Assembly: GCA_001662655.1 (NCBI GenBank)
Contig: KV460209.1
DNA: 64,000 nucleotides
From: Pseudogymnoascus verrucosus
Taxonomy: Eukaryota
Direction: 5' to 3' (one strand)
Shown in pieces: positions 14,881 through 64,000 of this stretch. The notes under the pieces are model-generated. The model did not search any database, was not told the DNA's origin, and saw only the letters and a list, made by a program, of their open reading frames with translations. The position numbers and the translations under genes are program-made. The stretch's first letter is position 1, and every line of letters begins with the position of its first letter.

Positions 14881-16472
14881 CTATTTAGGTTGGTCGTCAC
14901 AACTAGGATGTTGGCCAACAAATAGACTTGGCACGAAGTATTTCTCATTTTCCGCGGCGTAATCAAAGGCTGATTTACCCCGGGTATCCAGGATATCCAA
15001 ACTAGCTCCGTGATCGATGAGCAGCTTCGCGCTAACCAAATCATCCCGTCTCCAAACTAGCTCACAGCGAATATGTCTTGATTCATCCTCTGGTATGAGT
15101 GATACTCCCTGGCCAATGAGGCGTAGATCCGCTGTGGCCAAACTCTTCCTTGCTACTACATCGTGTAATGCAGTAGACCCTTTGATATTCTGCATGTTGG
15201 CCAACGCGCCATGGTCAAGAAGGAGCTTCAAAATGGCTGGTTGGATATTGTCTACCACAAGATGCAGACAAGTTCGGCCGTTATCGTCTTGCTTGTTGAC
15301 TTCAGCACCATGCCTAATGAGCAATTCCACCGTGTCTAAAACACCAAAAGCTACAGCGTGATGTAATGGGCTCCTGAAGTCTTCTTCGCCGGGCTCCGCA
15401 CTGATTCGTGCACCATGATTGAGGAGAAGCTTGGCTATACTTGAATCTGAATGGTCTACAGCCCTGAACAAGGGAGTTATTCCCATGTTGTCTTGTATGT
15501 TAATCGATGCTCCGTGGTCGAGGAGGAGCTTTGCTATGTCCAGATCTGGCCGTTCTATTGGATCCGGAAATATTGCGCATGGATCTGGCTGCTCTACAGC
15601 CCTAAACAAAGGAGTTATCCCCAGTTCGTCTCGTATGTTGACTGGCGCGTCGTGGTCGAGAAGTAGCTTTACAATAGATAGACTGCATTCTGCGGCGGCA
15701 ATATGTAAAGGGGTTGCTGAATGGATATCCATCGCTTCAAGATCTGCACCACGCTCAAGTAAAAGTTGTATCATGGAAATGCCGGTTTCGTTGCTTCTCA
15801 AACAGGCAAAATGAAGAGGGGTTCCGAAATAATCGCATATTTCCCAGCTAGCGGTTATATCAGAAGAATCGATATCAGCCCTATAATCAAGTAGGAGCGT
15901 AGCCATGTCCAGATCGCAATCGATATCAGCCCCGTAATCAAGTAGGAGCGTAGCCATGTCCAGATCGCCTTGATCAACAGCAATATGCAATGCAGTTGCT
16001 ACACGGACATTTGAGTTGTCCACGTCCGCTCCATTCTCAACTAAGAACTTCGCTACTTCAATATCACCCCTCTCTGCTGCTGCATGCAGTGGTGTACCCC
16101 ACTGACTAGGTGAATGGTCCACGTCAGCTCCATCCTCAAGAAGTAGCTTAGCCATAGCCACGCTTTTGGCAAAATGTAAAGGTCCAACTGGGGTTTCTGG
16201 CAGCAATTTCGAATCGGTATCATAAACCCCATTAATCTCCCTCGCGTCTGCGCCAAACTCGAGTAATAGCCTCACACCTGTTTCATAATCATCGCCGACA
16301 CATGATATTAATGCCGACCCCGAGTAGAACTGGACGTATGCTCATATAGAAACGAGAAGAGAAGTTGGTAGTTTCGTGCACTGGTCCCCATAAGTGAAGA
16401 AATATCCTTCTCCGTCTCTAATTGTCTGGCGATCAAGAGAAGTATCTCAGGCGGCAGTGTCGAGAATGACAT
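14881..16472 (-). pseudogene. F-box-like plus ankyrin-repeat protein with one frameshift at ~16336 (pseudogene or sequencing error)
   Basis: N-terminus MSFSTLPPEILLLIARQLETEKDISSL; restoring one base (cat ac gtc to HNVQFYSGSAL) joins it to a 464-aa frame with about 10 TPLH/LLxxGA ankyrin repeats. Confidence 0.8.
15867..15968 (-). repeat. 51-bp near-perfect in-frame tandem duplication within the ankyrin gene
   Basis: DLDMATLLLDYGADID followed by DLDMATLLLDYRADID; nucleotide period 51. Confidence 0.9.
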
Positions 16473-39186: not shown

Positions 39187-40068
39187 ATGGCAACCTTACA
39201 ATCCCAACCCCCGACCTCTGAAGCGTACCTTGTGAGCTACCCAGCTCAACATGTTGTCCTCCTCACAATAAACCGCCCAAAGGTCATGAACTGCATACAT
39301 GCGCAGGGCCACTGGGATATGGATGCGTTCTTCCAATGGTTCGACCATGAGCCCAGTCTTCGCGTCGCAATTATTACCGGGGCGGGCCCGAAGGCCTTCT
39401 GCGCTGGTCAGGATCTCATCGAGCAGGGCCGGTTTAAGGTGAACCGACCACCAACGTCGTCCATGAAGCACCCACCGAGTGGGTTTGCGGGCGTGAGCAG
39501 GAGAATTGGGAAGAAGCCGATTATTGCTGCCGTTAATGGGTTCGCGCTGGGAGGAGGGTTCGAGATCACGCTTAACTGGTTAGAAACCTCATTCTGTATT
39601 TGAGACAAAAGCTAACGAGTGGGCAGTGACCTTGTTGTAGCTTCCCCAACTGCGTCGTTTGGACTACCAGAAGCGTCGGTCGGTCTGTACGCCGCTGCCG
39701 GTGGACTGCCCCGTGTCGTCCGCAACTGTGGCCTTCAAATTGCTTCAGAGATTGCAATGACAGGTCGCCGACTTACAGCTGAAGAAGCGCTGAAATACAG
39801 CCTTATCAACAGGGTAGCAAAGTCTCCCAGCACTGTCATGGAAGAAAGCTTGGAGCTCGCCGCCAAGATTTCGAACCTCTCACCCGACGCCATCATCGTT
39901 ACGAGAAGCGGACTGCGTGAGGCATGGGAGACAGGCAGTGTTGAGAGAGCCACACAGATTACGTCAGATAGATATGATTACCAGCTGGGCACTGCCCCGA
40001 ATATGAAAATTGGGCTGGATGCGTTCGCGCAGAAGAAGAAGCCGGAGTGGGTGCCAAGCAAGCTGTAA
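39187..40068 (+). CDS. Enoyl-CoA hydratase/isomerase (crotonase) with C-terminal PTS1 (SKL); 1 intron
   Basis: AFCAGQDL, KPIIAAVNGFALGGGFE, FGLPEASVGL; ends WVPSKL. Confidence 0.93.
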
Positions 40069-40230
40069 AACCGCGATTTTCGAGAGCGTTGTCGTTTAAT
40101 CGTAGGATTTGTATCAGATAGATAAACTATGGGCTATTTACTTTGTTCAATTTGGTACTAAAATATGTTGATAACATTCCATTGTTCTGGTTGTGTCTCC
40201 CTGAGGGTCCATGTGAAACTTCCCCGCGTT

Positions 40231-40236
40231 CCGAGG
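40231..40236. promoter_or_regulatory. CCGAGG FarA/FarB-type site upstream of the NMO-family gene
   Basis: CCGAGG ~220 nt before the ATG. Confidence 0.45.
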
Positions 40237-40452
40237 TTCACCCAATAAAGTCTATGGCAGCTTGGGTGGACTCAGTTAATCCTAGCAACGCGACCAACTC
40301 GGCAAGAGGATCGTTACCCCATAGTTAGATACCCGTCCGGGTAGCCATATATATACCCTCTACCTTGGGAGCTCCTCTCATAATGTCCAAATACAGAATT
40401 AAATACCTGTAACCACCGTAACTCTTATTATTATCTTTTAGCGTAAACCAAG

Positions 40453-41691
40453 ATGTCGCTCGTTACGCCCCTCACGAAGCTGCTGAATATTCAGCACCCC
40501 ATATTCCTGGCCGGTATGGGGAAGACCTCAGGAGCGCCGCTGGCAGCCGCGGTCTCCAATGCTGGTGGACTCGGCGTCATTGGCGGGGTTGGATATTCTC
40601 CAAACCAGTTGAGGGAGATGATCGATGAGCTCAAGGCTAGTTTAATTTGAATTGACGGTTCAGTTATCATTCTAATACTCATCTAGAGCCTCTTGGTAGA
40701 CAAGAACGCCCCATTCGGAGTCGACCTTCTTATACCTCAAGTCGGCGGAAACGCTCGGAAAACCAACGTAAATACGCCTAGGCCGACCTATCAAACTGAA
40801 CACCTTCTAACATAGTAACCAGGTCGATTACGCAAAGGGCAAGCTGAACGAGCTGATCGACGTCATCATCGAAGGTGGCGCCAAAGTCTTCGTCTGCGCC
40901 GTCGGCGTCCCCCCCAAAGCCGTCGTCGAGAAACTCCACAATGCCGGCGTCCTCTACGCCAACATGGTCGGCCACCCGAAACATGCTCACAAGGCCTGCC
41001 AGATCGGTGCCGATATCATTGTCGCCCAAGGTGGTGAGGCTGGTGGACACACCGGCGATATCCCATTTAGCGTGCTCATCCCCGCTGTCGCCGACGCAAT
41101 TAAGTCGTACAGGTCGCCGCTGACAGGCCAGCCTGTCTACCTCGCTGCCGGAGGCGGTGTCTTTGACGGACGCAGTTTGGCCGCGGCGCTAATGCTAGGT
41201 GCGAGCGCTGTGTGGGTGGGTACGCGGTTCGTGGCGTCGAAGGAGTCGGGTGCGTCAGAGCACAACAAGAGAACGCTTGTCCAGGCGGGCTTCGACCAGG
41301 TTATCAAGACGACGATCTTCACTGGACGCCCGGTGAGGCACTATGCCACGCCATATATTAAGAACTGGGAGGAGAATCGCCAGGGGGAGATTAAAGAGCT
41401 CCTTGGAAAGGGGATCGTGCCGCTCCAATGGGAGCTTGAGAAGTATGATAAGGAGGGGAAGTCGACGGAGGAGATCGAGGATCAGACTACCTTTATGTAT
41501 GTTGTCCCTGTCGCTGCACCATATTGCATAAGAATGCTTGCTGACCGAATATGTTTAGGCCTATGGGATATGTGGGTGGTCTCGTTACACAGTTGAACCA
41601 GCCTGCTGGAGACATTGTGCGGGAAATGGTCGATCAAGCATATGAGCTTCTTCGCAGCCCAAGTAAATTTGTAAATGACTCGAAATTGTAA
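40453..41691 (+). CDS. Nitronate monooxygenase/2-nitropropane dioxygenase (FabK-like FMN) family protein with PTS1 (SKL); 3 introns
   Basis: HPIFLAGMG, LAAAVSNAGGLGVIG, AQGGEAGGHTG, GASAVWVGTRF; last exon ends KFVNDSKL-stop. Confidence 0.92.
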
Positions 41692-41813
41692 GTAGAACAC
41701 AGGGGCAATGTGTTAGCTGGCGAGGATATATTAATTATATATTATTAAATTTCTTTGAAATGATGTAAAAATGTGATTTAATTCTCAATCTGTATTTTAG
41801 CTATCCGTATGGT

Positions 41814-43338
41814 CTACTTCTTCTTCAAGTACAGAGTCTGCACGTTACAGTATGCCTTGACTCCACCCAAGCCGTTCTCGTAGCCAATGCCACTTTCCTT
41901 GTGTCCACCGAATGGGAAGTTCGGAGTGACATCCATGTGGGAGTTAATCCACACGGAGCCGGCCTCAATTTGCTCTGCAATGCGACGTCCCTCAACTAAA
42001 TCAGTGGTCCACACAGACCCTCCAAGACCCATCCTGGTGTTGTTCGCGCGAGCAATGACATCGTCCTCATCGGACCACGATAAGATTGGGAGAATTGGGC
42101 CTGTACTAGTTAGTACTGTGCTACGTTACTACTCCAAGAGTGTAAAAGAATCCCTTACCAAATGGCTCCTCGACCACAATCCGCGAGTCCTCCTTAGGCC
42201 TATCAATGATAGTGGGGTTAATGAAGTAACCAGGGCTCTCATCAATCGTGCCGCCAACAGCCACCTTCCATCCCTCCTTCTCGATGTCGCTGAAAAATCC
42301 CTTGACGCGCTCATACTGCATTTCGTTCTGGACTGGCCCAATAGTCACAGTTGGGTCGTTCTCGCCCTCGCCAACGCCCTCGCCAAGCTTGAACGCCTTG
42401 ACAGCAGCTACCAAGGCATCACGGAACTCCTCGAAAATGCTTTCGTGGACATAGAGTCTCTTGATGGCAAGGCAAACTTGGGACGAATGGCTGAATATAA
42501 CGCCGGCGAGCGCGGGAGCAATCGTGGCAACGTCGATGTTCTTAGTGATGATGGCTGCGTCGTTTCCACCGAGCTCGAGCGTGACTCTCTTTAGGGTCTT
42601 GGAGGCCGACTGCATGACCTTCTTTCCGGTGGCGGTGGAGCCAGTGAAAGAGATTTTATCGACACCTGGGTGCTCGGTCAACAGTTGACCGAGGCTGTCG
42701 TCGCCACTAAGAACTTGGACGACTCCAGGAGGGAAGAATTTTTGGGCCATCTCGACAAGCTTGAGGCCAGAGTATGGTGTATATGGAGAGGGCTTGATGA
42801 TGATGCAGTTGCCAGCAATGACAGCAGCCGCTATCTTGGCCGCTGTACAGTGAAGAGGTAGGTTCCAGGGCACAATTCCAACTACAACACCGAGGGGCAA
42901 ATAGCGGACGATGACTTCACGTTCTGGGGTGTCCTCAACAACTTCGTCAATGGGATGAAGCTTCGCAGTCTCAGACAACCATCCAGCGCCCATGTGGATA
43001 AGGATTTCGGCAATTGAAACCGGTGCTCCCAGCTCGTAACCGTTGAGCTTGACAAATTCCTGTTGGTATTCGTAAATAGTTGCTGCCAGGCCGTTCAGCG
43101 CTTTAGCGCGTTCCTCGAAGCTGGTCTTCTTCCATTTAGGGAAGGCAGCACGCGCAGCTGCAACTGCGTCGTCAACATCCTTGGATGTAGAGAGAGGAAC
43201 TTCAGCCAGGGGCTTCTTGGTGTGGGGGCTGATGGCATGGCGGGTGGTTTCGGTGGTCTTCAACTCTCCGTTTATGACATTTTGGAATGTAGTGAAGTTG
43301 AACTCCTTCTTGGAGCTATCGTTAGTTACTGCAGCCAT
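41814..43338 (-). CDS. Aldehyde dehydrogenase; 1 intron
   Basis: IVPWN, KPSPYTP, FTGSTATGK, LELGGND, catalytic QVC, EEPFGP, PFGGHKESG. Confidence 0.95.
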
Positions 43339-43596
43339 TTTGTTAAGTATAGTATAGTAAGAGAAATACGAATTTTAGAAGGGGTCGGGGACAGTCTGGA
43401 CTATATAACCCCTTATTGTTTTGTGGTTGGTGATATGCCCCGCTACGGATCGATGGAAGTCTTTGAAGGCGGGGAAGGCTTATCTGACCTAAGCCTCACA
43501 AAAGGCTCGAATAACTCCAATCACTACTTAACTTGACCTTCCTAATCGACCCCCTTTTACCATTTCAAGCAAAGAAGGCTGAACTTGTGCTTACAA

Positions 43597-49400: not shown

Positions 49401-50254
49401 GGCGCCTTCGATTGAGGGGTTGTACTGTGGAGGGGTGCTTGGTGGGAGGTGGGAGGTTGGAGGTTGTGGGGTGTCTTTTTTGGTTGAGCAAGAAAGTTGC
49501 GGTGAATGCAAGGTACGCGACAGGGGTATCCGCGCGACCCAAGATCCGAGGATGAGATCACACGGGTAGCAATCGGAACGAAAATTGAATCTGAACTACT
49601 TTTCCATTTGTGATTTATTATTGAAAATAATAATTATCTAAGTGCAGTATATTTCTTCTTGTCGATATTCCCCGAGCTATCAAACCCTGTTTATTGGCCA
49701 ACCAAGCATGCAACATATGGTTAGTTGCAAACTGATTGGTTGCTTGTCTGTCAGTATGGCACTCGTTACACTTCTGCCCGTTTCCGCAACAGCGACGAAA
49801 ATAGAGGGTTTCAAATCATACAATCAATTCAAGCGTTTAAAAAATCGAGAAGAACTGCCACAAGTGGATATATATTTTTGCCCCGTGACAGTGTTCACCG
49901 AGAATCGCGACGCACGCCAAATGGAGCATGCTATTTATCGAACGGCCTGATCCAGTTGAACATCACTCCGTTCGCTGGGAAAAGGCACACTATATAGATG
50001 CCGCAGTATTTGGAGCACCGCATCATCATTATTCACATATTTCATAGTAAATATCACAGGTTAATTCGGTTTCAATTCTCAAATCTGAAGGCTTTATCTG
50101 TCCATTTCCGCGAGACTTTCACGCCTTGAATACCAATTCCGTACGAGTCCTTGCGAAGTGCTTTGACTGTAATAATTAGCCAGATGCATCAAAGCACGGA
50201 TATTCGAACCTAACCGTATAACAAGAGACTGGCTAGCCATATTATGGGGTGACT

Positions 50255-50761
50255 CTATTTGTTATCCTTGGCCTAGGTGAAGTTAGTATCAGAGGATAAA
50301 AAATATAACTCAAACTTGCCATTGCAACAGCATTGTTTCCAACCTCTGTGAGCTGGGCGCAAAGAAACTGATGGAACTTCACAGTCTCAGGGTTATTTTT
50401 GTTCGCATTGAGGTCTTCGACTGCCCATGTAATGAACTCTTCAAAGAGGCGGTTGAAATCCTGAACATTGCGCTTGGAATCTTCCTCGGACATAGTCGGT
50501 GACCATTTTATCGCGTGTATCTTGTCAAGTATGTCTCCTGGCTTCGCCGGCCACATTCCCTTGTCCTTTAGCTCCTGGCGGGCTTTTCCAATGCCCTTCT
50601 CTTCTATCTCTTGGAGGCATTTGCGGTATTTTTCAGGAGAATACGCATCAGTGCTACTTTCGCCGATCTTGGGCTCCTTCTGAGACCGTTAGTCATAGTG
50701 AAAATTGGACCTGACAGTTGCATGTTACAGGGAAACCAACCTCATCTGTGTTGTTTCCCAT
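50255..50761 (-). CDS. Small hypothetical protein (~135 aa), 2 coding introns plus probable UTR introns
   Basis: MGNNTDE|KEPKIGESSTDAYSPEKYRKCLQE...NNAVAM|AKDNK-stop; branch points and acceptors keep the frame. Confidence 0.6.
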
Positions 50762-51140: not shown

Positions 51141-54100
51141 TCAAGCCTTCCACAAAGCTTCCAAATCCGTCTCAATACCCATCAACTCAGCCAGTCGCCC
51201 ATCTTTGTTCTCACCCATCATTGTCAAAACCGCGCTGAACAGTTCAGCGAATTTGTCAGCCTGGCTATCGTTCAAAGCCTTACTATCCCATTGCAGCTTA
51301 AACCGGTGGCCCTTTGCAGTCTTTTGGACCTCCACCATCAAGGCATAGTTGATAGTCATGAAGACCTTGCTCTGCGCCATGACGATCCACCTCATAGGAT
51401 CAGGCTTGGCCGTCGCAGGAGCAGGCTCAAATGGCTGAAAGCAATAGAGCAGTTTTGCGGAATGCACCTGCCTGTCTCTATTCAACGTCTTGTACATGTC
51501 ATTAAGACCAACTGCACCATGCTCAGTCGTGTCCCAGAACTGTGCTTGCGTGTCTTTGAGGAACTTGGCGATCGACTCCTTGCTGGACAGCTTCGATCGG
51601 AAAGGTAGAAAGTTTGCACACGCCCCGTTCAAGGTTTGCGGGTTCTCGACATCTGCGTTGCGGCCAGTGAGGAGGTTGTCGACCAGTACATCGTTGGCCC
51701 CAGTCAGCTTGCCAGCAACGATTGAATAGGCGGCTTGGAAGACGGTTGAGGCTGTGACGCCAAAAGCGGATGCAGTGCTATCCACGTCTGCATTTACCAC
51801 AGCAAACTTCAGTCGATCTGAAATAGGCTGTAATGGTAGGTTGTGTCTGGGAGTGTATGAGTGGAGCGAACGCTTCCAGTATCGCAGTGCTTCGCTTCGA
51901 TCGACACCATGTGCCCAGTCAATGAATTTTTTGAATGAATTGACAGGAGGGATATTTGTATCACCGCGAGCGATGGCCCTGAATTGGTCGTCGAAGATCC
52001 GGAGAAGGGTTCCATCATACGATCCATGATCTACCTTGATGCACAGTGTCCTCGCGCCGTCTGTCAGGGATTGGAGGAGCCTATACTTGATATTGGGCCT
52101 GCCAAAGGTAAAGAGCCCGTCCCGCAAGCTCTCCATGTGGCCCAGCTTCTCTGCGTCAGTGGCGTAGAAGATGTGCTCAAAGTCCATTACCGGCTCTCTG
52201 AGGATGATCTATAATACTGTTAGACGATGCTGTCAATTTTTCGTAGTTATCATGGACTTACCTGATACCAAGATGATTCGTCAATTTGATCGACTTGGAA
52301 GTACATTGTTCTCAAGATTTGATTTCTGGCCGTCAGCTCCCTCGTGGTATCTTTCCAGAGCTGGAGATCGAAGTGTGGGGGAAGTTCTCGACAAGCAGTG
52401 AGATTCCAGAACTGTTGCTTCTTGTGCCCTTGAGTCAAGAACTCAATCTGGCCAGCACCACAAGGATAAAAATCCTCAATATATTGATGAAAATCAATGC
52501 CAGCATTTCCCATGGCCGACAACAATGATTGCGGAGTCTCATACTTGACTTCTGCGACGACCTTCTTCTTTTGTGCTGCTTTGAGATTTTTCGCCTGCTC
52601 TCCGAGAGTTGGGTTGGAGAGAATATGGGATACGGAGATGTTATAGGAAAGCTTTCGACAGGCAGCAACAACATTGATGGCGGATATTGAGTCTCCTCCA
52701 AGACTGAGAAAGATGGAACTCGCACCGATCGATTCCTCAGGCTCGTCGAGAACCGACGCCCACGCCTGTCGCATCACCAGCTCTTCTTCAGTTGAGGCAG
52801 CCACGAATTCGTCCGAACCATTATCGCGAGGCAGATATGTTGTAATCTCGGAATTCGTCATCTGCTCTGCAACTGCTATGAGGGCCTTCCTGTTTGACTT
52901 TCCAGACGGGAGAGTTGGGAAGCTTCTGAAAGGCAGGAAGAGACTTGGCACCATATAATGCGAGAGTGTAGTGAGCCGGGATGAAAGGCTTAAAATCCTG
53001 TCCAAGTAGTCGTCCGCTGGCAGCATTGCCGTGTTATTCGGAAGATGGTCGCCTTTGAAGATGCAGAATGCAACAAGCTGGCGCTTTCCGTGTAATTCAG
53101 CAACGGATACGATAGCAGCGTCGACTTCCTCAGTTACGAGGATTGCGTTTTCAATCTCACCAAGCTCGATGCGGAAACCGTTAAGCTTGATCTGATAATC
53201 CTTTCGGCCGAGACATCTGTGACACAGTTGGTGATAGCTCCTTGATGTGATGGGCATACGTACTCAAGGCTCCCATCATCTGCCCATCGTGCCAGGTCTC
53301 CGGTTCTATAGAGAGGCTCTCCATCAGTGTCGCGGACAAAGGCTGCAGCCGTTTGTTCAGGGCGATTGAGGTATCCCTTTGCAAGTTGCGGCCCGCGGAC
53401 ACAGAGTTCTCCTACAGTACCACGTGGTACGGGCTCCAAGTTGCCAGCTTCAGGCGAGACGACGGTTGTGGTAACATGCTTTAATGGGTATCCGATACTG
53501 TTAAGACTGCCGTCTGGCTTTACATGCGAAACAGTCATGAGAATCGTGGCTTCAGTGGGACCATAACTAGAATCTGGTTAGCCCTGTTTGGGTACCTCGA
53601 TCTGCGGGAGACACTTACCCGTTATAAACATCTACACTCTGTGCCCAGTTCAGGATGTTCACATCAATTTTCTCGCCGCACACATTCAACACCTTCAGAC
53701 CGGGCACTTCTGCTGGGCCACCAGAAATGAGCTTGGTAATCGTCGGTGTGAGCATCACCTGCTCGATCTCCAATTTGTTGATATAGCTGGCGAGGTTTGA
53801 TAGTAGCTCATCCTGTGGTGCGAGGCATAAAGTCGCCCCAGCCGAGAAGATGGTGAAAACATCATAATAGGAAGCATCGAAAACATAGTTGAGGACCCAC
53901 AGAGCATTCCAATCGGAAGTCACGGCTGTGGCTTCAATCATACCCTCTGTCGAAGCTGTCACAGCTGAATGTTGTACAACGACACCTTTTGGCAATCCTG
54001 TCGAACCAGAAGTGTAGATTGCGTAGATCACGCTTTCTGGAGTGAGCTCTGGAATCACAGGGTTCTGTGAAGAGTCAGAAGGAAGCTCCATGTCCTCGGT

Positions 54101-57100
54101 GATAATCATTTCAACACCAAAAGATGCACAAGCGCTTCTGGTGTGTTCATCTGTGACAATTCGCTTCGCCTCGACATCTTTAACGATGAATGCGTTTCTA
54201 TCATGCGGATTGAGTGGATCGAGAGGCGTAAAGGAAGCGCCGGCTTTAATGATGCCGAGGATAGAGATCAAGGTTTCCGTCGATTTTTCCATGTAGAGAG
54301 GGATCATCTCGCCATGCTGGACACCTTCTGAAATGAGCCAGGCAGCAAAGCTATTGGCCTTTCCATTGAGCTCTGCATAAGACAACATTTCCCCTGAGGC
54401 CGTGCGAATAGCAGTCTTTGACGGAGTAGATGCTGCAAAAGACTCAAAAGCAGCATGTGCAAGTCCAAATTCTGGATATGACGTTGCAAGCCTTGGAATT
54501 TCTTCGGCCGAGTCTTCATAAACTGAGGAAACCTCATTAGACATCTGAGCTGCGACCCCCTCGGGATTTCCGATCATGCCGCCCACGATTTGAACAAATC
54601 TGCCTAGTAAAGTCTCGGCGGAAAGCAAATCTCCAGCGAAAGGCACTAGCATCTTGACTGATGTTGGGTCTGTTTCGCTGATCTCAATGGTGATGTATCT
54701 AATTGCGATGTTAGTTTGAACAATGATTGAAGTACTACAAAACGACAGGGGTCACTCACTGCGTGAAGTTGTCTCCGTGGGTAATAATCGGCACCAATGG
54801 GCCAGCGACGAGAGAGTCATCTTGCTTCACAAGTATATTAACCATGGTGTTAAAGGCACTTGGTTTCATGGATCCCTCGGTCAGGGCATTTCGCATCCCA
54901 GAGTGGGCGAATCTGGATAGAACCCAAAGATTGCTTTGCACTGCCTTTGCGAAGTCAACGGCATGTAGCCCTTCATCTACTTGAACCCGCATGGGCACAG
55001 TATTGAGAGTCGGGCCATCTAGTGACAAGATTCCGTCTAGGTCGGCATCTCGTCCTGAAAATGCTGCGACGAAAGTTACGTCTCGAGTATTGAGCATCGA
55101 AGCAAGAGTTAAAGCCCAGGCGGCATGGACGAAGGCACCCATGGTTACACCATAATTGTGGCTATATTCTGTCAAGCCATGGTCAATTGTGGATTTTAAG
55201 ACGAAAGGCTCAATAGCCTGTGCACTAATCCCGAGATCAACGACGGTTGGCGTAGCCGACTGAAGATAGCCTCTCCAGAACTCCTTAGCCTTCTCATCGT
55301 GTGTGTGTTGCTGAAAGGCGACGTATGAACTAAAAGGCAGGCGAGGAATCGTCGATTTCCCTTGCAAGACTGCAATAGTATCCTGGATAACGAATTGGCT
55401 AGACCAGAAGTCGAACAGGCTGTGGTGCATCTCGAGGAGAAGAATATCTTCGTCGATAACAGTAACCCTGATGAGAGGCTCATCGAGAGGCATTTCCTCT
55501 TTGCTTGATTCCTTCACGACACTGTCTAATGAAGCCCCTTTAATGACTGTCCAAGGGATTTCCGCGGTTTTCTTAACTGCCTGAACGAAACTCCGTTTGT
55601 GTGGGTAAAAGACCGTTCGTAGCATATTGCTGCGAGCTAAGACTTGATTCATTGCCGCCTGTACCTGAGAAGAGCTGACTCCCTGTAGCTGATACGTGCG
55701 CTGATAGACATAGTTGACAGTACCCAAGATGGAGTCTGCCAGGATGCCTTCCTGAAGCGGCGTGACGGGATAGGCGTCTTCAAGCCCGGCTAGATTAATC
55801 TTTGCTCCCTGTGGGAGTAAAGAGAAAGGCGCTGGAGGGGTTGCAATTTCCAAATTTGGCTCAGTTTGGCAATCAAGCATCTGCCTTATCGACTCAGACT
55901 GCAAGATATCCGAAACGGAAATGTGAATATCAATTTTTCTCAGGTTGGATGCTACAACAATGGCGTCCAGGGACGAGCCACCAAGCTCCTGGAATGAAAC
56001 ACTGAAATCAACCGTGTCTGGCGATATAGAGAGAGCAGAAGCAATTGTCTCAGCAATCTTAGCATCGGAACTAATTTCAAGTTTATCAGTGGCTTCTGCG
56101 AGTCGGAGTGATGCATGTGACGATTGTGGTGTAAGGATTGATGGTGTGATAGACAATTTGATCAGCTTGTTTGCATCCATCGCTTCAACCGCCTTTTGGA
56201 GGCTGGATATGTCAACTTTTCCGCTCGCTGTGAGAGGCAATTCTTCGCGCTGGACCCAGTATCGAGGGATGGCGTAATGAGGGAGCAGAGCTCCCAGCTC
56301 TAGGCGTATCTCTCTGATGAGAGACGACCACTCCTTCCCCTTCTCGGGCACAATAACACCAACCAGAGAATTCCTATTGAGAACAACGGCAGACACCACA
56401 ATGGATTGGACGACGCCAGGTTGGACCTGGATTATGAAGTTTGACTCGCTTGGCTCTACTCGTTGGCCGTCAATCTTTGTCTGCTGGTCGATTCTTCCAA
56501 TAAGCTCGATTGTTCCGTCGTCATTCTCGATGACCATGTCACCTGTCCGATAGAGGCGTCCAGCTCCGTAGGGATTGTTGATGAAGACTTCCCGAGTTTT
56601 CTCTGGAAGGTTAAGATACCCCTTGCCAAGTTGGTCTCCACCAAGGCATAGCTCGCCAGAGGTCATTGGTGGCACGCGATTGAGGGTATTCGGAGCAAGT
56701 ACGATATATGTTGTGCCTGTGTCACGGTTAGTTGCTTCATATCAAAATACTACTCCGCATGCAAGGGGCATCAGCCCCGAATGTTACGTACTATCTGAAG
56801 GCATTCCAATAGTTCGTGCCGAATGACCGGGCTTCAGGAGATGTCTCATATTTAACTACTATTCGTTAGTGTCCTGTCGTTTCTGCTCTGGGATTGGGGC
56901 GGCATACCTGAGTGCATTCGCTAAGACCATATGCACCGATCAGCTCGACCTTTCCTGCCCAAGTCTCAACAAGTTCCGGGCCGACGGCTTCGCCACCAAG
57001 TGTGATCCTTTTGATAGCCGAAGGTACATTTAATGGATCGATAAGCTTGAGCATGCTTGGTGTAATCTCAAGTGACGAGATGCCCATTTCCTCAATGGTG

Positions 57101-57936
57101 TCGCTTAGACACAGGGTGATATTCTCTTTGCTAGCAAGGCATAATGTGCCACCACGGCATAGAGCCCCGAGGATGGTGCGTTGTGCGGCGCTGAAGATGG
57201 GAGAATGGCAGAGCAGCTGTCTGAAGGGTTGTGATACATCCAAATCGGGAAGTGCAGATATCCCAGTATGGGCAGCAGAGTGAGGAAGAATAACACCTTT
57301 AGGGTGCCCAGTTGTGCCGGATGTGTAGATGACATAGGCGGTGTCTGATGGGTCTTGATAATTGTTGACATTGGTGAGATATTTTGGACTCATTGCCTGT
57401 GACACGGTGACAAGATCCTCGATAGATGCTTCTTGAGCAGGCGTGAAGCTTCCCTCAGTTGTGGAATCGGTGATGACGAATAATGCTTTGGTGTCGTTGA
57501 CGATAAACCGATTCCGCTCCGCAGGGGAGTCAGTTGAGAGGAGCACATAGGCTGCTCCGGCCTTCAAAACTGCCAGTAAGGCAACAATCAGGTTTATAGA
57601 CCTAGAGACGGCAATGGGCACAATGGTATTTCTGGCCCAAGACAGCTGGCGTGCCACACCATTGGCAGTTTCGTTGAGCTGCTGGTAGGTCAGCTCATCT
57701 TGGTTCTCGAACTGGACGGCGATTGCATTGGGAGTCTTCTTGGCCTGTCTCTCAAACAACGAGTGGACAAGGCCATCTGACCCAGCCGTCAAGGCTTCGA
57801 TATTGGATGCGGAAGAATTGAGGGCTTTGAAGATGCCCTCAAAGCCTGAGACTTGGTCAAGCTCCAACTCAAGGAAGAGCTTGTGGCCCCTGAGGAATAC
57901 CGTGGCAGGGGATCGCTGCACAACTTGAATAGCCAT
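51141..57936 (-). CDS. Bimodular NRPS A-T-C-A-T-C (SidE/ferrichrome-synthetase-like lineage); ~6 introns
   Basis: A1 YTSGTTGHPKG/YRTGD/SGKVD; T1 LGGSSL; C1 HHSLFD; A2 YTSGSTGLPKG/FDAS/YGPTE/YRTGD; T2 LGGDSI; terminal C DHGSYDG. Confidence 0.93.
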
Positions 57937-59215: not shown

Positions 59216-60271
59216 ATGGCCCAAGTTCTCACCATTGCAAGCGGCACCCAGGTGCCAGCCGTGAACTTCCACGCCCAAAAATATTCCGTTGATAAGCTCG
59301 AGGCAAACGAGGTCCTCATCAAGATGCTCGCAGCCCCAATCAACCCCCTCGACATCCTGGTGCTCGCAGGCGTCTACCCTGTTAAGCCATCCCACACACA
59401 CCTTGACGAGCCCATCCTAGGCTACGACGGCGTGGGCGAGGTTCTCAAGATCGGAAGAAGCGTGACCACCCTCTCGCCCGGTGACCTCGTTGTGCCGAGC
59501 AAGTTCGGGACAGGCACTTGGCGCACCCATGCTGTGCTCGACGCTGCGTCACTCCAGAGGGTTACATATCCTACGGACCTGGCTTTCGCATCCATCCTCC
59601 GCATTGGGATCGCCCCTGCATTCTGCCTCGTGGAAGACATGAGAGCCTTGAAACCTGGTGACTACATCATCCAGAATGCTGGAACCTCACTCCTGGCTCA
59701 GTTTGTCATCCAGTTCGCACGCCGTCGCGGGGTTAACGTCATCAACGTTGTCCGCGACCGCGAGGCTTACGAGCTAGAGAAAGTCGAAACGGCTCTCCGC
59801 AAGCTTGGGGCTGAAATTGTCGTTACGGAGAGTGCCCTCGCCGGGGATGCCCGCGTTAAAAATAAGCGCATCATGCTCGCTCTGGACTCGGTCTTCGGGA
59901 CCTCCGGACGCGGGCTAGTCAAGGCTCTTGCCGTGGGCGGGACGTACGTGCAGCTGGGATTCCTGAGTGGGGCGGCAGGGGGTCCCATCGCGATTGATCC
60001 CACGGATCTGTTTGCGCGACAGCTGACGATGAAGGGGTTCCGTGGGTCTGCGCAGGTGGGGCTGCGTTCTGCTGAGGAGCAGGTTGACTTGTTCAACTGG
60101 TTCGTGGAGCTGTTCAACAACGGAGAATTGCAGCTGCCCGCGCTTGGCTTGCAAAAGGTGAAGTGGTCTGTTGGTAATGCAGAAGGGAGCAAGGGGGCGC
60201 TTCTCGAGGCTGTGGAGCGCGCCAAGAGCGGTGCTCTGGGGCAGAGGAAGCAGATCATTCTCTTCGAGTAG
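59216..60271 (+). CDS. Etr1/MECR-type trans-2-enoyl thioester reductase (MDR family), intronless, no mitochondrial presequence
   Basis: LAAPINPLD...GVYP, GYDGVGEV, GTWRTH, GDYIIQNAG, VINVVRDR. Confidence 0.88.
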   Translation: MAQVLTIASGTQVPAVNFHAQKYSVDKLEANEVLIKMLAAPINPLDILVLAGVYPVKPSHTHLDEPILGYDGVGEVLKIGRSVTTLSPGDLVVPSKFGTGTWRTHAVLDAASLQRVTYPTDLAFASILRIGIAPAFCLVEDMRALKPGDYIIQNAGTSLLAQFVIQFARRRGVNVINVVRDREAYELEKVETALRKLGAEIVVTESALAGDARVKNKRIMLALDSVFGTSGRGLVKALAVGGTYVQLGFLSGAAGGPIAIDPTDLFARQLTMKGFRGSAQVGLRSAEEQVDLFNWFVELFNNGELQLPALGLQKVKWSVGNAEGSKGALLEAVERAKSGALGQRKQIILFE

Positions 60272-61548: not shown

Positions 61549-62255
61549 CTACTCCGTAACACTAGCCTTCAGCATATCCTCTAACCCCTCCGGCCTAATT
61601 GGCTGATCATCATCAATTCTCAACCCATTAATGATTCTAGCAAGCGTGGAATAAGTCCCCAAAATAATGAGCACCTCAACCAACTCCGCATGACCCAAGA
61701 TCTCCACTGCATCATTGATCGTGCCAGGGGTGTTAGTGTAGGTTGCGAGCTGCTCGTCTATCACGCGTAGGATTACACGCTGGCGGTCAGTCCATGGGCC
61801 TTCGCCTTGGCGCACACTGAAGGCAGTGCAGCCGATGGCGGCTATCTTTTCCTCGCCCAAGTTGAAAATTTCAGCGACGGGGAGGTTGACGTCGTATTCG
61901 TACTTTGCACCGAGGGTGGTGGCAGTGCGAAGGACGATGAGTTGCTGTTTGCGTTAACTTGTTCTCACCTCATTATAGTGATACTGTGCCTGTTGCAGAT
62001 GTGGTGTAGGAGGTGAGGACTTACCCAGTCTAGCAAGGGGATCTTGCGAACATCCTTGTTGAAGCAGCCCCCAATGAGGCCCATTATGTGTGGGAATAGG
62101 CCCGGGGAGTGCGCCAAAAGGAGAAATATATTGCGACGGAAGGGTAGGACGTTGATTTTCTCAGCGATATGGGGCGGTGCTGTGGCAGCTTCGACATAAG
62201 GGATGAGGCAGGTGTGTCGGAAGGGGTCAGCGTGTGGTTCAGTGGGGGCAGACAT
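61549..62255 (-). CDS. AhpD/carboxymuconolactone decarboxylase-like protein; 1 intron
   Basis: NIFLLLAHSP...W|QLIVLRTATTLGAKYEY...WTDRQRVILRVIDE...ELVEVLIILGTYSTLARIINGLRID matches the double AhpD-like helical pattern. Confidence 0.75.
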
Positions 62256-63206: not shown

Positions 63207-64000
63207 ATGGAAAACTCCACCCCCCCCGCCATCCCCTCCTTCCACTCCACCCTCCTCTCCCTCCCCTCCTCCCTCCACAACAGCTACTCCCACCGCCTCC
63301 CCGCCCTCACCTACCTCTCCCCCCTCCTCCGCCCCTACATCTACGTCCCCCTCCTCGTCACCGCCTACATCCTCTACTACCGCTACCTGACCGGGCTCTC
63401 CCACATCCCCGGGCCCTTCTCTGGCACCTTCAGCAACTTCTGGAAAATCAGCGCAGCATGGCACGAAGAGATGCCCAAACGAAACATCGCCGCGCACCGC
63501 AAGTACGGCCCACTTGTCCGCGTGGGTGCGAATATGATTAGCGTCGACGACCCGGCGGCGATGTCAACTATCTATGGGTTTAAGCCGATTTACTCGAAGA
63601 CGGCATTTTACCCTATTGTCGAGGCGTTGTATAAAGGCAAGCTTCTCGCGAATCTGTTTACCACGCGCTCGGAACAGTATCATGCACGCCTAAAGCGCGC
63701 GTCGGTGACGGCATACTCGATGACTGCACTCGCAGATCTCGAGCCGCACGTGCAGCCCGTGATCGACCTTTTCCTGAAACGCATCGATGAGGTTGGTGCT
63801 GGTGGAACCAAGGCCTTCGATATTGGGTCTTGGCTGCAGTTTTTCACCTTTGATGCGCTAGGAGAGATCAACTTCTCTGAGCAGCTTGGATTCCTGGAGA
63901 CGGGCACCGATGTGGGGAAGAGTATTGGCACGATTGATGGGCTATTGGCATATTTGTCGGTTGTGGGGCAGGCTCCATGGATGCATCGCTTTTTGCTGGG
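63207..64000 (+). CDS. Cytochrome P450 (pisatin demethylase-like), 5' part; runs off window end
   Basis: N-terminal TM segment, IPGPF, HRKYGPLVRVGANMISVDDP, IYG...KTAFY, WLQFFTFDALGEINFS...GFLETGTD. Confidence 0.9.
   Translation, partial: MENSTPPAIPSFHSTLLSLPSSLHNSYSHRLPALTYLSPLLRPYIYVPLLVTAYILYYRYLTGLSHIPGPFSGTFSNFWKISAAWHEEMPKRNIAAHRKYGPLVRVGANMISVDDPAAMSTIYGFKPIYSKTAFYPIVEALYKGKLLANLFTTRSEQYHARLKRASVTAYSMTALADLEPHVQPVIDLFLKRIDEVGAGGTKAFDIGSWLQFFTFDALGEINFSEQLGFLETGTDVGKSIGTIDGLLAYLSVVGQAPWMHRFLL

Follow-up and report, generated by a model that had tools for sequence, protein, structure and literature searches.

What does a non-ribosomal peptide synthetase (NRPS) load as its starter when its first adenylation domain (A1) has lost Asp235, the residue that binds the alpha-amino group of amino acids? 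The question is raised by a bimodular NRPS gene of Pseudogymnoascus verrucosus, which lies in the 64,000-nucleotide stretch of contig KV460209.1 that was analysed here (the window). An initial annotation had proposed a fumarate-type pocket for this domain, with perhaps a different dicarboxylate as the actual substrate. Substrates are reported for only two members of the family concerned, which counts hundreds. Our analysis suggests that the protein is probably a SidE/FtpA-family NRPS whose product is a tailored N-(dicarboxyacyl) amino acid, and that it stands at the core of a five-gene cluster (Table 1).

Table 1. Features of the NRPS locus, in window positions unless prefixed by L009.
Feature	Position	Strand	Basis or remark
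Bimodular NRPS gene, A-T-C-A-T-C, 2151 aa, 7 exons	51141..57936	-	One open frame; Pfam
NRPS exons	57936-56908, 56855-56792, 56716-54760, 54698-53619, 53566-53264, 53216-52262, 52208-51141	-	
A1 domain, ~residues 55-545	56175..57774	-	Code residues; HMMER alignment; AlphaFold fold match
A4 motif FSAAQR (Ser for Asp235; Arg at 239)	57178..57195	-	Ser249 codon 57192-57190
A5 motif AYGLSECTQ/LNMR	56844..56934	-	Intron 1 (56907-56856) inside
T1 domain, carrier Ser613	55872..56072	-	Pfam; GGSSL; codon 55973-55971
C1 domain	54765..55781	-	HHSLFD intact
A2 domain	52850..54466	-	Code DAYMNCGILK, Asp235 kept
T2 domain, Ser1654	52589..52771	-	GGDSI
Terminal C domain, DHGSYDG	51183..52477	-	Type as SidE (DHGLYDG) and FtpA (HHSSYDG)
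MDR-family 2-enoyl thioester reductase (MECR/Etr1-like)	59216..60271	+	PDB 2vcy, E 1.4e-42
AhpD/CMD-fold protein, 208 aa, intron 62024-61945	61549..62255	-	AhpD/CMD profile matches, best E 1.3e-10
Cytochrome P450, 5' part	63207..64000	+	Pfam p450; continues to L009:1996
MFS transporter	from L009:4185, past window end		After P450

The NRPS gene is intact. All six introns are of the GT..AG type, the spliced frame is open across 2151 codons, and Pfam profiles recover A, T and C domains, two of each. The model agrees with database protein P0237 at 2151/2151 residues; this entry probably annotates the same gene and is hence not independent support, while the next-nearest named relatives are Pseudogymnoascus proteins at 88-92%. 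Separate support for introns 1-3 comes from contigs of near relatives, where all 12 of the indels listed (of 28) fall inside these introns. FSAAQR is the same in all 108 relatives aligned, and the gene is open throughout, so the motif is a product of neither chance nor decay. The idea that A1 is decayed or misassembled, to which we give a negligible probability, is refuted by this family-wide conservation, and the catalytic Lys531 and the A3 loop are likewise intact.

HMMER alignment of A1 to GrsA (PDB: 1amu) sets 'ifsaaqr' on 'ISFDASVW', 'ssleitps' on 'TVITLPPT' and 'igayglsect' on 'INAYGPTETT', whereby Ser249 corresponds to Asp235, Arg253 to Trp239, Glu290 to Thr278 and Ala335 to Ala322. The flagged part of A4 and A5 lies in exon 1, with AYGLSECTQ ending at 56908 and Leu344 following after the GT..AG intron 1, so that Gln343 and Leu344 are joined by splicing. 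The code residues S249, A250, R253, E290, T312, G314, A335, Q343, L344 and K531 read SARETGAQLK. The initial annotation had thus read correctly that A4 is FSAAQR rather than FDxS, that A5 runs across the intron as AYGLSECTQ/L, and that the code is the one given here. Relative to canonical domains, A5 shows a Pro-to-Leu change at 325, together with Gln330, Leu331 and Arg334, and H244, S245, L338 and R347 are further marks around the pocket. The alignment-based AlphaFold model (pLDDT 80) has the fold of NRPS A domains, with 7ywk as the best match (TM 0.76); it is this model that confirms the fold, as prediction from the single sequence reached a pLDDT of only 39. 7ywk is an engineered TycA variant, which we take to load a hydroxy acid, and like A1 it is without the Asp and has the A5 Pro-to-Leu change. 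Leu at 325 (A5 YGLSE) is present in 240 of the 246 family members that have the S-A-R signature described below. A canonical alpha-amino-acid A domain was considered for A1 and rejected, with both Asp235 and YGPTE absent; A2 fits that description instead.

The initial annotation took the loss of Asp235 as the sign of a non-amino-acid starter, and this holds only in part. The accessible text of one study reports the Asp-to-Ser change for fungal fumarate-activating A domains, citing SidE and FtpA, and it also describes PlmJ A1 (code SIVIVTAGTK), which has Ser235 and activates methionine (PMC10549243). The loss alone is therefore no proof, and A-domain codes are described as predicting poorly in fungi in the portion available of another (PMC6737921); the case has to be made from the whole motif and the tree. 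The pattern S-A-R...Q-L-K, which the initial annotation had ascribed to SidE and FtpA, is indeed found in the database sequences, which read SARGTVSQLK in the SidE cluster and SARDVGSQLK in NRPS7/FtpA. When A1 is aligned to both, as the initial annotation had proposed, seven of ten code positions are shared with each, and eight carry a residue found in one or the other; only Glu278 and Ala322 occur in neither. Sequence comparison thus supports an A1 pocket of the known SidE/FtpA type.

Bimodular NRPSs like SidE and FtpA are named the SIDE group in the accessible text of PMC2823734. The sequence features of this group are all present in the window protein: 1) two modules in the order A-T-C-A-T-C; 2) Ser235, Arg239 and Gln330 in A1; 3) Asp235 in A2; and 4) a terminal HxxYDG. 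SidE (NRPS3, the fumarylalanine synthetase AFUA_3G03350, 2109 aa) shares with it the architecture, the lack of an N-terminal extension, a similar length, the motifs FSAAQR and YGLSEC and the terminal DHxxYDG. SidE differs in having Gly278, Val301 and Ser322, in lacking Arg334, in its position on another branch of the tree and in its A2 code (DVYFTGGVLK), and A1 identity is 36.6%. Cluster P0336, with the SidE-type proteins of A. fumigatus, also includes proteins from A. fischeri and A. lentulus that bear the name SidE. FtpA is closer, with A1 identity of 46.7%, 39% over the whole protein, an acid at 278 with Arg334, and a place on the same D/E branch. It has its own Asp278, Val299 and Ser322 and an A2 code of DGYNAGSICK, and is longer at the N-terminus by about 220 residues, which include a third C-like stretch. 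The second substrate of FtpA is Tyr/Phe. We infer that FtpA is NRPS7/PesH of Aspergillus fumigatus (P0171 cluster), as ftpR (AFUA_3G15290 in the accessible text of PMC13068945) lies near nrps7 (AFUA_3G15270 in that of PMC6737921). Orthology of the window NRPS with SidE was rejected, as its A1 and A2 codes and its clade are not those of SidE; orthology with FtpA/NRPS7 was rejected on the two codes and the N-terminal extension.

To place the pocket in the wider family, we collected 314 representatives from three protein searches, which were picked by likeness to the queries and do not amount to a census. S-A-R at 235/236/239 is present in 246 of the 314; the Asp235-to-Ser pocket is already known, widespread in fungi and ordinary for the SidE/FtpA family. 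Residue 278 varies among these 246: Gly is the commonest (113), followed by Asp (99) and Glu (33), and a single sequence has Asn. Arg334 accompanies Asp278 in 99/99 and Glu278 in 32/33 sequences (131/132 for the acids together), and Gly278 in 1/113; these counts are not independent of kinship and represent a pattern rather than a statistic. The simplest reading is that the acid at 278 and Arg334 look like a buried ion pair rather than a change of substrate. The suggestion that Glu278 signals another dicarboxylate is therefore not upheld, because the fumarate enzymes themselves differ at this position (Gly, Asp) and the acid travels with Arg334. Residue 231 is Ser in 30/33 Glu types and Asn in 99/99 Asp types, and this near-pocket change, peculiar to the clade of the window enzyme, may point to an acid differing from fumarate. 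Glu278 also arose separately in two other branches, represented by P0407 (SARETARQMK), which has a second Arg at 322, and P0191 (SAREAGSQLK).

A FastTree phylogeny was computed for 111 A1 domains, drawn from the 186 complete sequences among the 246 by retaining every Glu type and, for each code pair, no more than two of the other types, with four A2 domains as outgroup. Window A1 groups with the A1 domains of SidE and FtpA, apart from the A2 domains, which formed the sole outgroup. It belongs to a clade of 19 (support 1.0), nested in a D/E-278 branch (support 1.0) that has FtpA inside and SidE outside; the position of the clade inside this branch has a support of 0.24. P0191 and P0407, the other Glu278 sequences, fall outside the clade. 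Every one of the 19 sequences of the clade has the A2 code DAYMNCGILK, as has a metagenome contig (L012). In 17 of 18 members A1 begins within about 50 residues, so that these lack the extension found at the N-terminus of most Asp types, and the T1 carrier Ser is invariant in 18/18. The T1 motif at 55971-55982 (minus strand) is GGSS and not GGDS; GGSS or GGTS is usual for module 1 family-wide. Judged from the tree and the codes, the clade is a separate ortholog group, neither SidE nor FtpA, and its hosts include Pseudogymnoascus, Tricladium, Botryosphaeriales, Cercospora, Xylariales, lichen fungi and one Aspergillus.

Contig L012 carries the NRPS, reductase, AhpD/CMD-fold, P450 and MFS genes, arranged and oriented as in P. 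verrucosus (56-75% identity), and both its A1 and A2 codes are identical to those of the window. It is one of two close loci among the 75 of the metagenome scan, the other (L013) being too short to show neighbours. By this comparison the five genes form a conserved cluster. The flanking genes of the window have no match in L012, which runs on for only some 1.2 kb after the MFS gene, and a 148-aa frame, DcpS, GILT, CEF1, an aldehyde dehydrogenase and a GMC oxidoreductase were rejected as members because none of them matches L012. The 148-aa open frame (50242-50688, minus strand) lies just downstream of the NRPS, has no Pfam match and is absent from L012; the GMC oxidoreductase-like gene (L009:8955-10000, on G000:C4), identified by eye, lies 3 kb beyond the MFS gene, and L012 stops short of it. 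At 39616-43374, 8 kb from the NRPS, an enoyl-CoA hydratase, a nitronate monooxygenase-like gene and the aldehyde dehydrogenase adjoin one another; being separated from the NRPS by CEF1, GILT and DcpS, they are probably unrelated. Further away, an ankyrin-repeat-like frame at 14881-16341 (minus strand), read by eye, contains an internal near-duplicate (DLDMATLLLDY twice). A comparison, made without a control, of the intergenic 9-mers common to the window and L012 gave nothing notable.

The reductase gene lies upstream of the NRPS and is divergent from it, and its product, 62% identical to the L012 copy, is without a mitochondrial leader. The genome has in addition a housekeeping-type reductase (L088, on G000:C7), to which the cluster copy is 36% identical. 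The MECR/Etr1-type proteins that it matches act on 2-enoyl thioesters, by their PDB names. Compared with MECR/Etr1 features, the cluster copy keeps the Tyr, which we take to be the catalytic residue, and has a changed Gly-rich NADPH loop, reading NAGTSLLAQ versus NGANSGVGR in the housekeeping copy. The nucleotide-binding loop is altered in 5/5 cluster-type reductases seen, a similar bulky loop being present also in L012, P0444, P0567 and P0467. This suggests a cluster-specific subfamily with a changed cofactor binding or role, and the enzyme may not reduce at all. The AhpD/CMD-fold protein is 74% identical to its L012 counterpart, and no second match to its gene was found in the genome. An AhpD peroxidase was rejected as its identity, because the CxxC and His are absent and YEYDVN aligns with GCAFCVDMH of 2gmy. 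Asn stands where His is usual, and there are only 23 close 50%-identity representatives (E up to 1e-10). The P450 and MFS proteins are 69-75% identical to those of L012.

Outside the window, linkage of these tailoring genes was seen on one contig (L012) and as locus-tag adjacency in two genera; of the 10 top CMD homologs examined among 110, two had usable locus tags and eight gave no link either way. In Paracoccidioides, consecutive tags denote an NRPS with a SAR-D type A1 (PADG_02836, SARDTAAQIK), a single 544-aa reductase-CMD model (PADG_02837, 42% to the window reductase and 46% to the CMD-fold protein) and a P450 (PADG_02838, 51%). In Beauveria, a CMD-fold homolog occurs on the contig of a SidE-like NRPS of the SAR-D type (SARDVGSQLK), two tags or accession numbers from it in three records and 4-20 tags in five. 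The NRPSs of both genera have their own A2 codes and an N-terminal extension, unlike the window NRPS. Annotated reductase-CMD fusions exist with either domain first (P0444, P0467), the order in P0467 being opposite to that in PADG_02837; as gene models they may result from wrong joining, and the model P0563 merges the P450 too. The neighbours of FtpA are different: in the accessible text of PMC13068945 they are an MFS, two hypothetical proteins, a methyltransferase, an amine transporter and a PKS-like gene, with ftpR as regulator, and none of these six is annotated there as a reductase or P450. The cassette is hence not needed for fumarate use. We regard the conserved tailoring genes, which the initial annotation had missed, as a better lead than Glu278 for suspecting a modified acid.

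These observations are consistent with the following scheme. A1 would take a short unsaturated dicarboxylate and adenylate one of its carboxyls; as such a substrate has no amine, Ser would take the place of Asp235, Arg239 at the pocket floor would grip the far carboxylate, and Glu278 would pair with Arg334. Ser613 of T1 would then carry the acyl group as a 2-enoyl thioester. A2 would put a small alpha-amino acid on T2, since Tyr239 and Met278 close its floor, comparable to Tyr and Phe in the alanine pocket of SidE. C1 would form the amide, and the last C domain, likely a release domain from its SidE-like motif, would free the product. More speculatively, the tethered enoyl group may be a substrate of the reductase, tailoring of the acid or of the product may fall to the P450 and the CMD-fold protein, and export to the MFS pump; with such tailoring enzymes the end product would not be a plain fumaryl-amino acid. 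As for the substrate of A1, the pocket leaves roughly even chances for fumarate, an appreciable but lesser chance for another short (C4-C5) diacid, and a slim one for something else.

Several other readings bear on these choices. A1 could prefer a substituted or oxidised diacid, such as mesaconate, itaconate, citraconate, epoxysuccinate or malate, supplied before loading by the CMD-fold protein and/or the P450, with the reductase setting a stereocentre (e.g. in a methylsuccinyl group). We consider this possible, if on the unlikely side. A2 codes differ across the window, Paracoccidioides and Beauveria clusters while the reductase, CMD and P450 stay, so that the cassette, speculatively, more likely works on the acid half; reduction of fumaryl to succinyl gains little, and that of a branched enoyl group would gain; moreover, Gly301 and Ala322 give space and Ser231 is clade-specific. 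Yet FtpA, a reported fumarate enzyme, also has Gly301, and among the 10 PDB profile matches of the CMD-fold protein none is, by title, a characterised biosynthetic enzyme.

That the enzyme is simply SidE-like, with a fumaryl-amino acid as its end product and neighbours that serve resistance, redox or turnover, would suit its architecture, its terminal C motif and the Tyr239 and bulky 278 of its A2, all as in SidE. It is nevertheless rather improbable, given that a P450 and a second, dedicated enoyl reductase remain linked across distances of 51-74% identity and that annotated reductase-CMD fusions occur in either order. Still less credible, indeed very improbable, is an A1 that takes an amino acid despite Ser235, or a module 1 that is skipped as proposed for PlmJ (PMC10549243, accessible text). 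The precedent of methionine activation by a Ser235 domain favours it, but PlmJ A1 has only the Ser and the Lys in common with the window A1, which has the full motif with Arg239; C1 and T1 are intact, and A1 groups with FtpA.

The open-access literature, with subscription papers and picture tables outside its scope, yielded no product for the window clade or the cassette, and the code strings, including SARETGAQLK, were absent from it. No product is named for the Paracoccidioides and Beauveria clusters in the accessible portions of PMC9143124 and PMC3203195, and a Paracoccidioides supplement gave no match. The combination of CMD, enoyl, P450 and NRPS likewise led to no product, PMC4237347 and PMC5007530 being irrelevant as far as their accessible text goes, and the text of the penilumamide supplement, whose tables may be pictures, held no SidE or FtpA codes.

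The clade combines fixed A1 and A2 codes with a five-gene cluster compact enough for expression as a unit. Knowledge of its product would define the range of the S-A-R pocket outside fumarate, and might reveal what the Cys-free AhpD-fold protein and the atypical enoyl reductase do. We also entertain, as a doubtful proposal, that the clade loads or builds a non-fumarate diacid, the carrier-bound acyl group being rewritten by the reductase acting in trans with its Cys-free AhpD-fold partner and the P450. If true, acyl rewriting on the carrier would add a new module for the tailoring of starter acids in NRPSs, common to clusters in at least four ascomycete classes, including dimorphic and insect pathogens. 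Orphan succinyl, methylsuccinyl and maleimide amino-acid metabolites exist as compound classes in fungi, and such rewriting could account for some of these.
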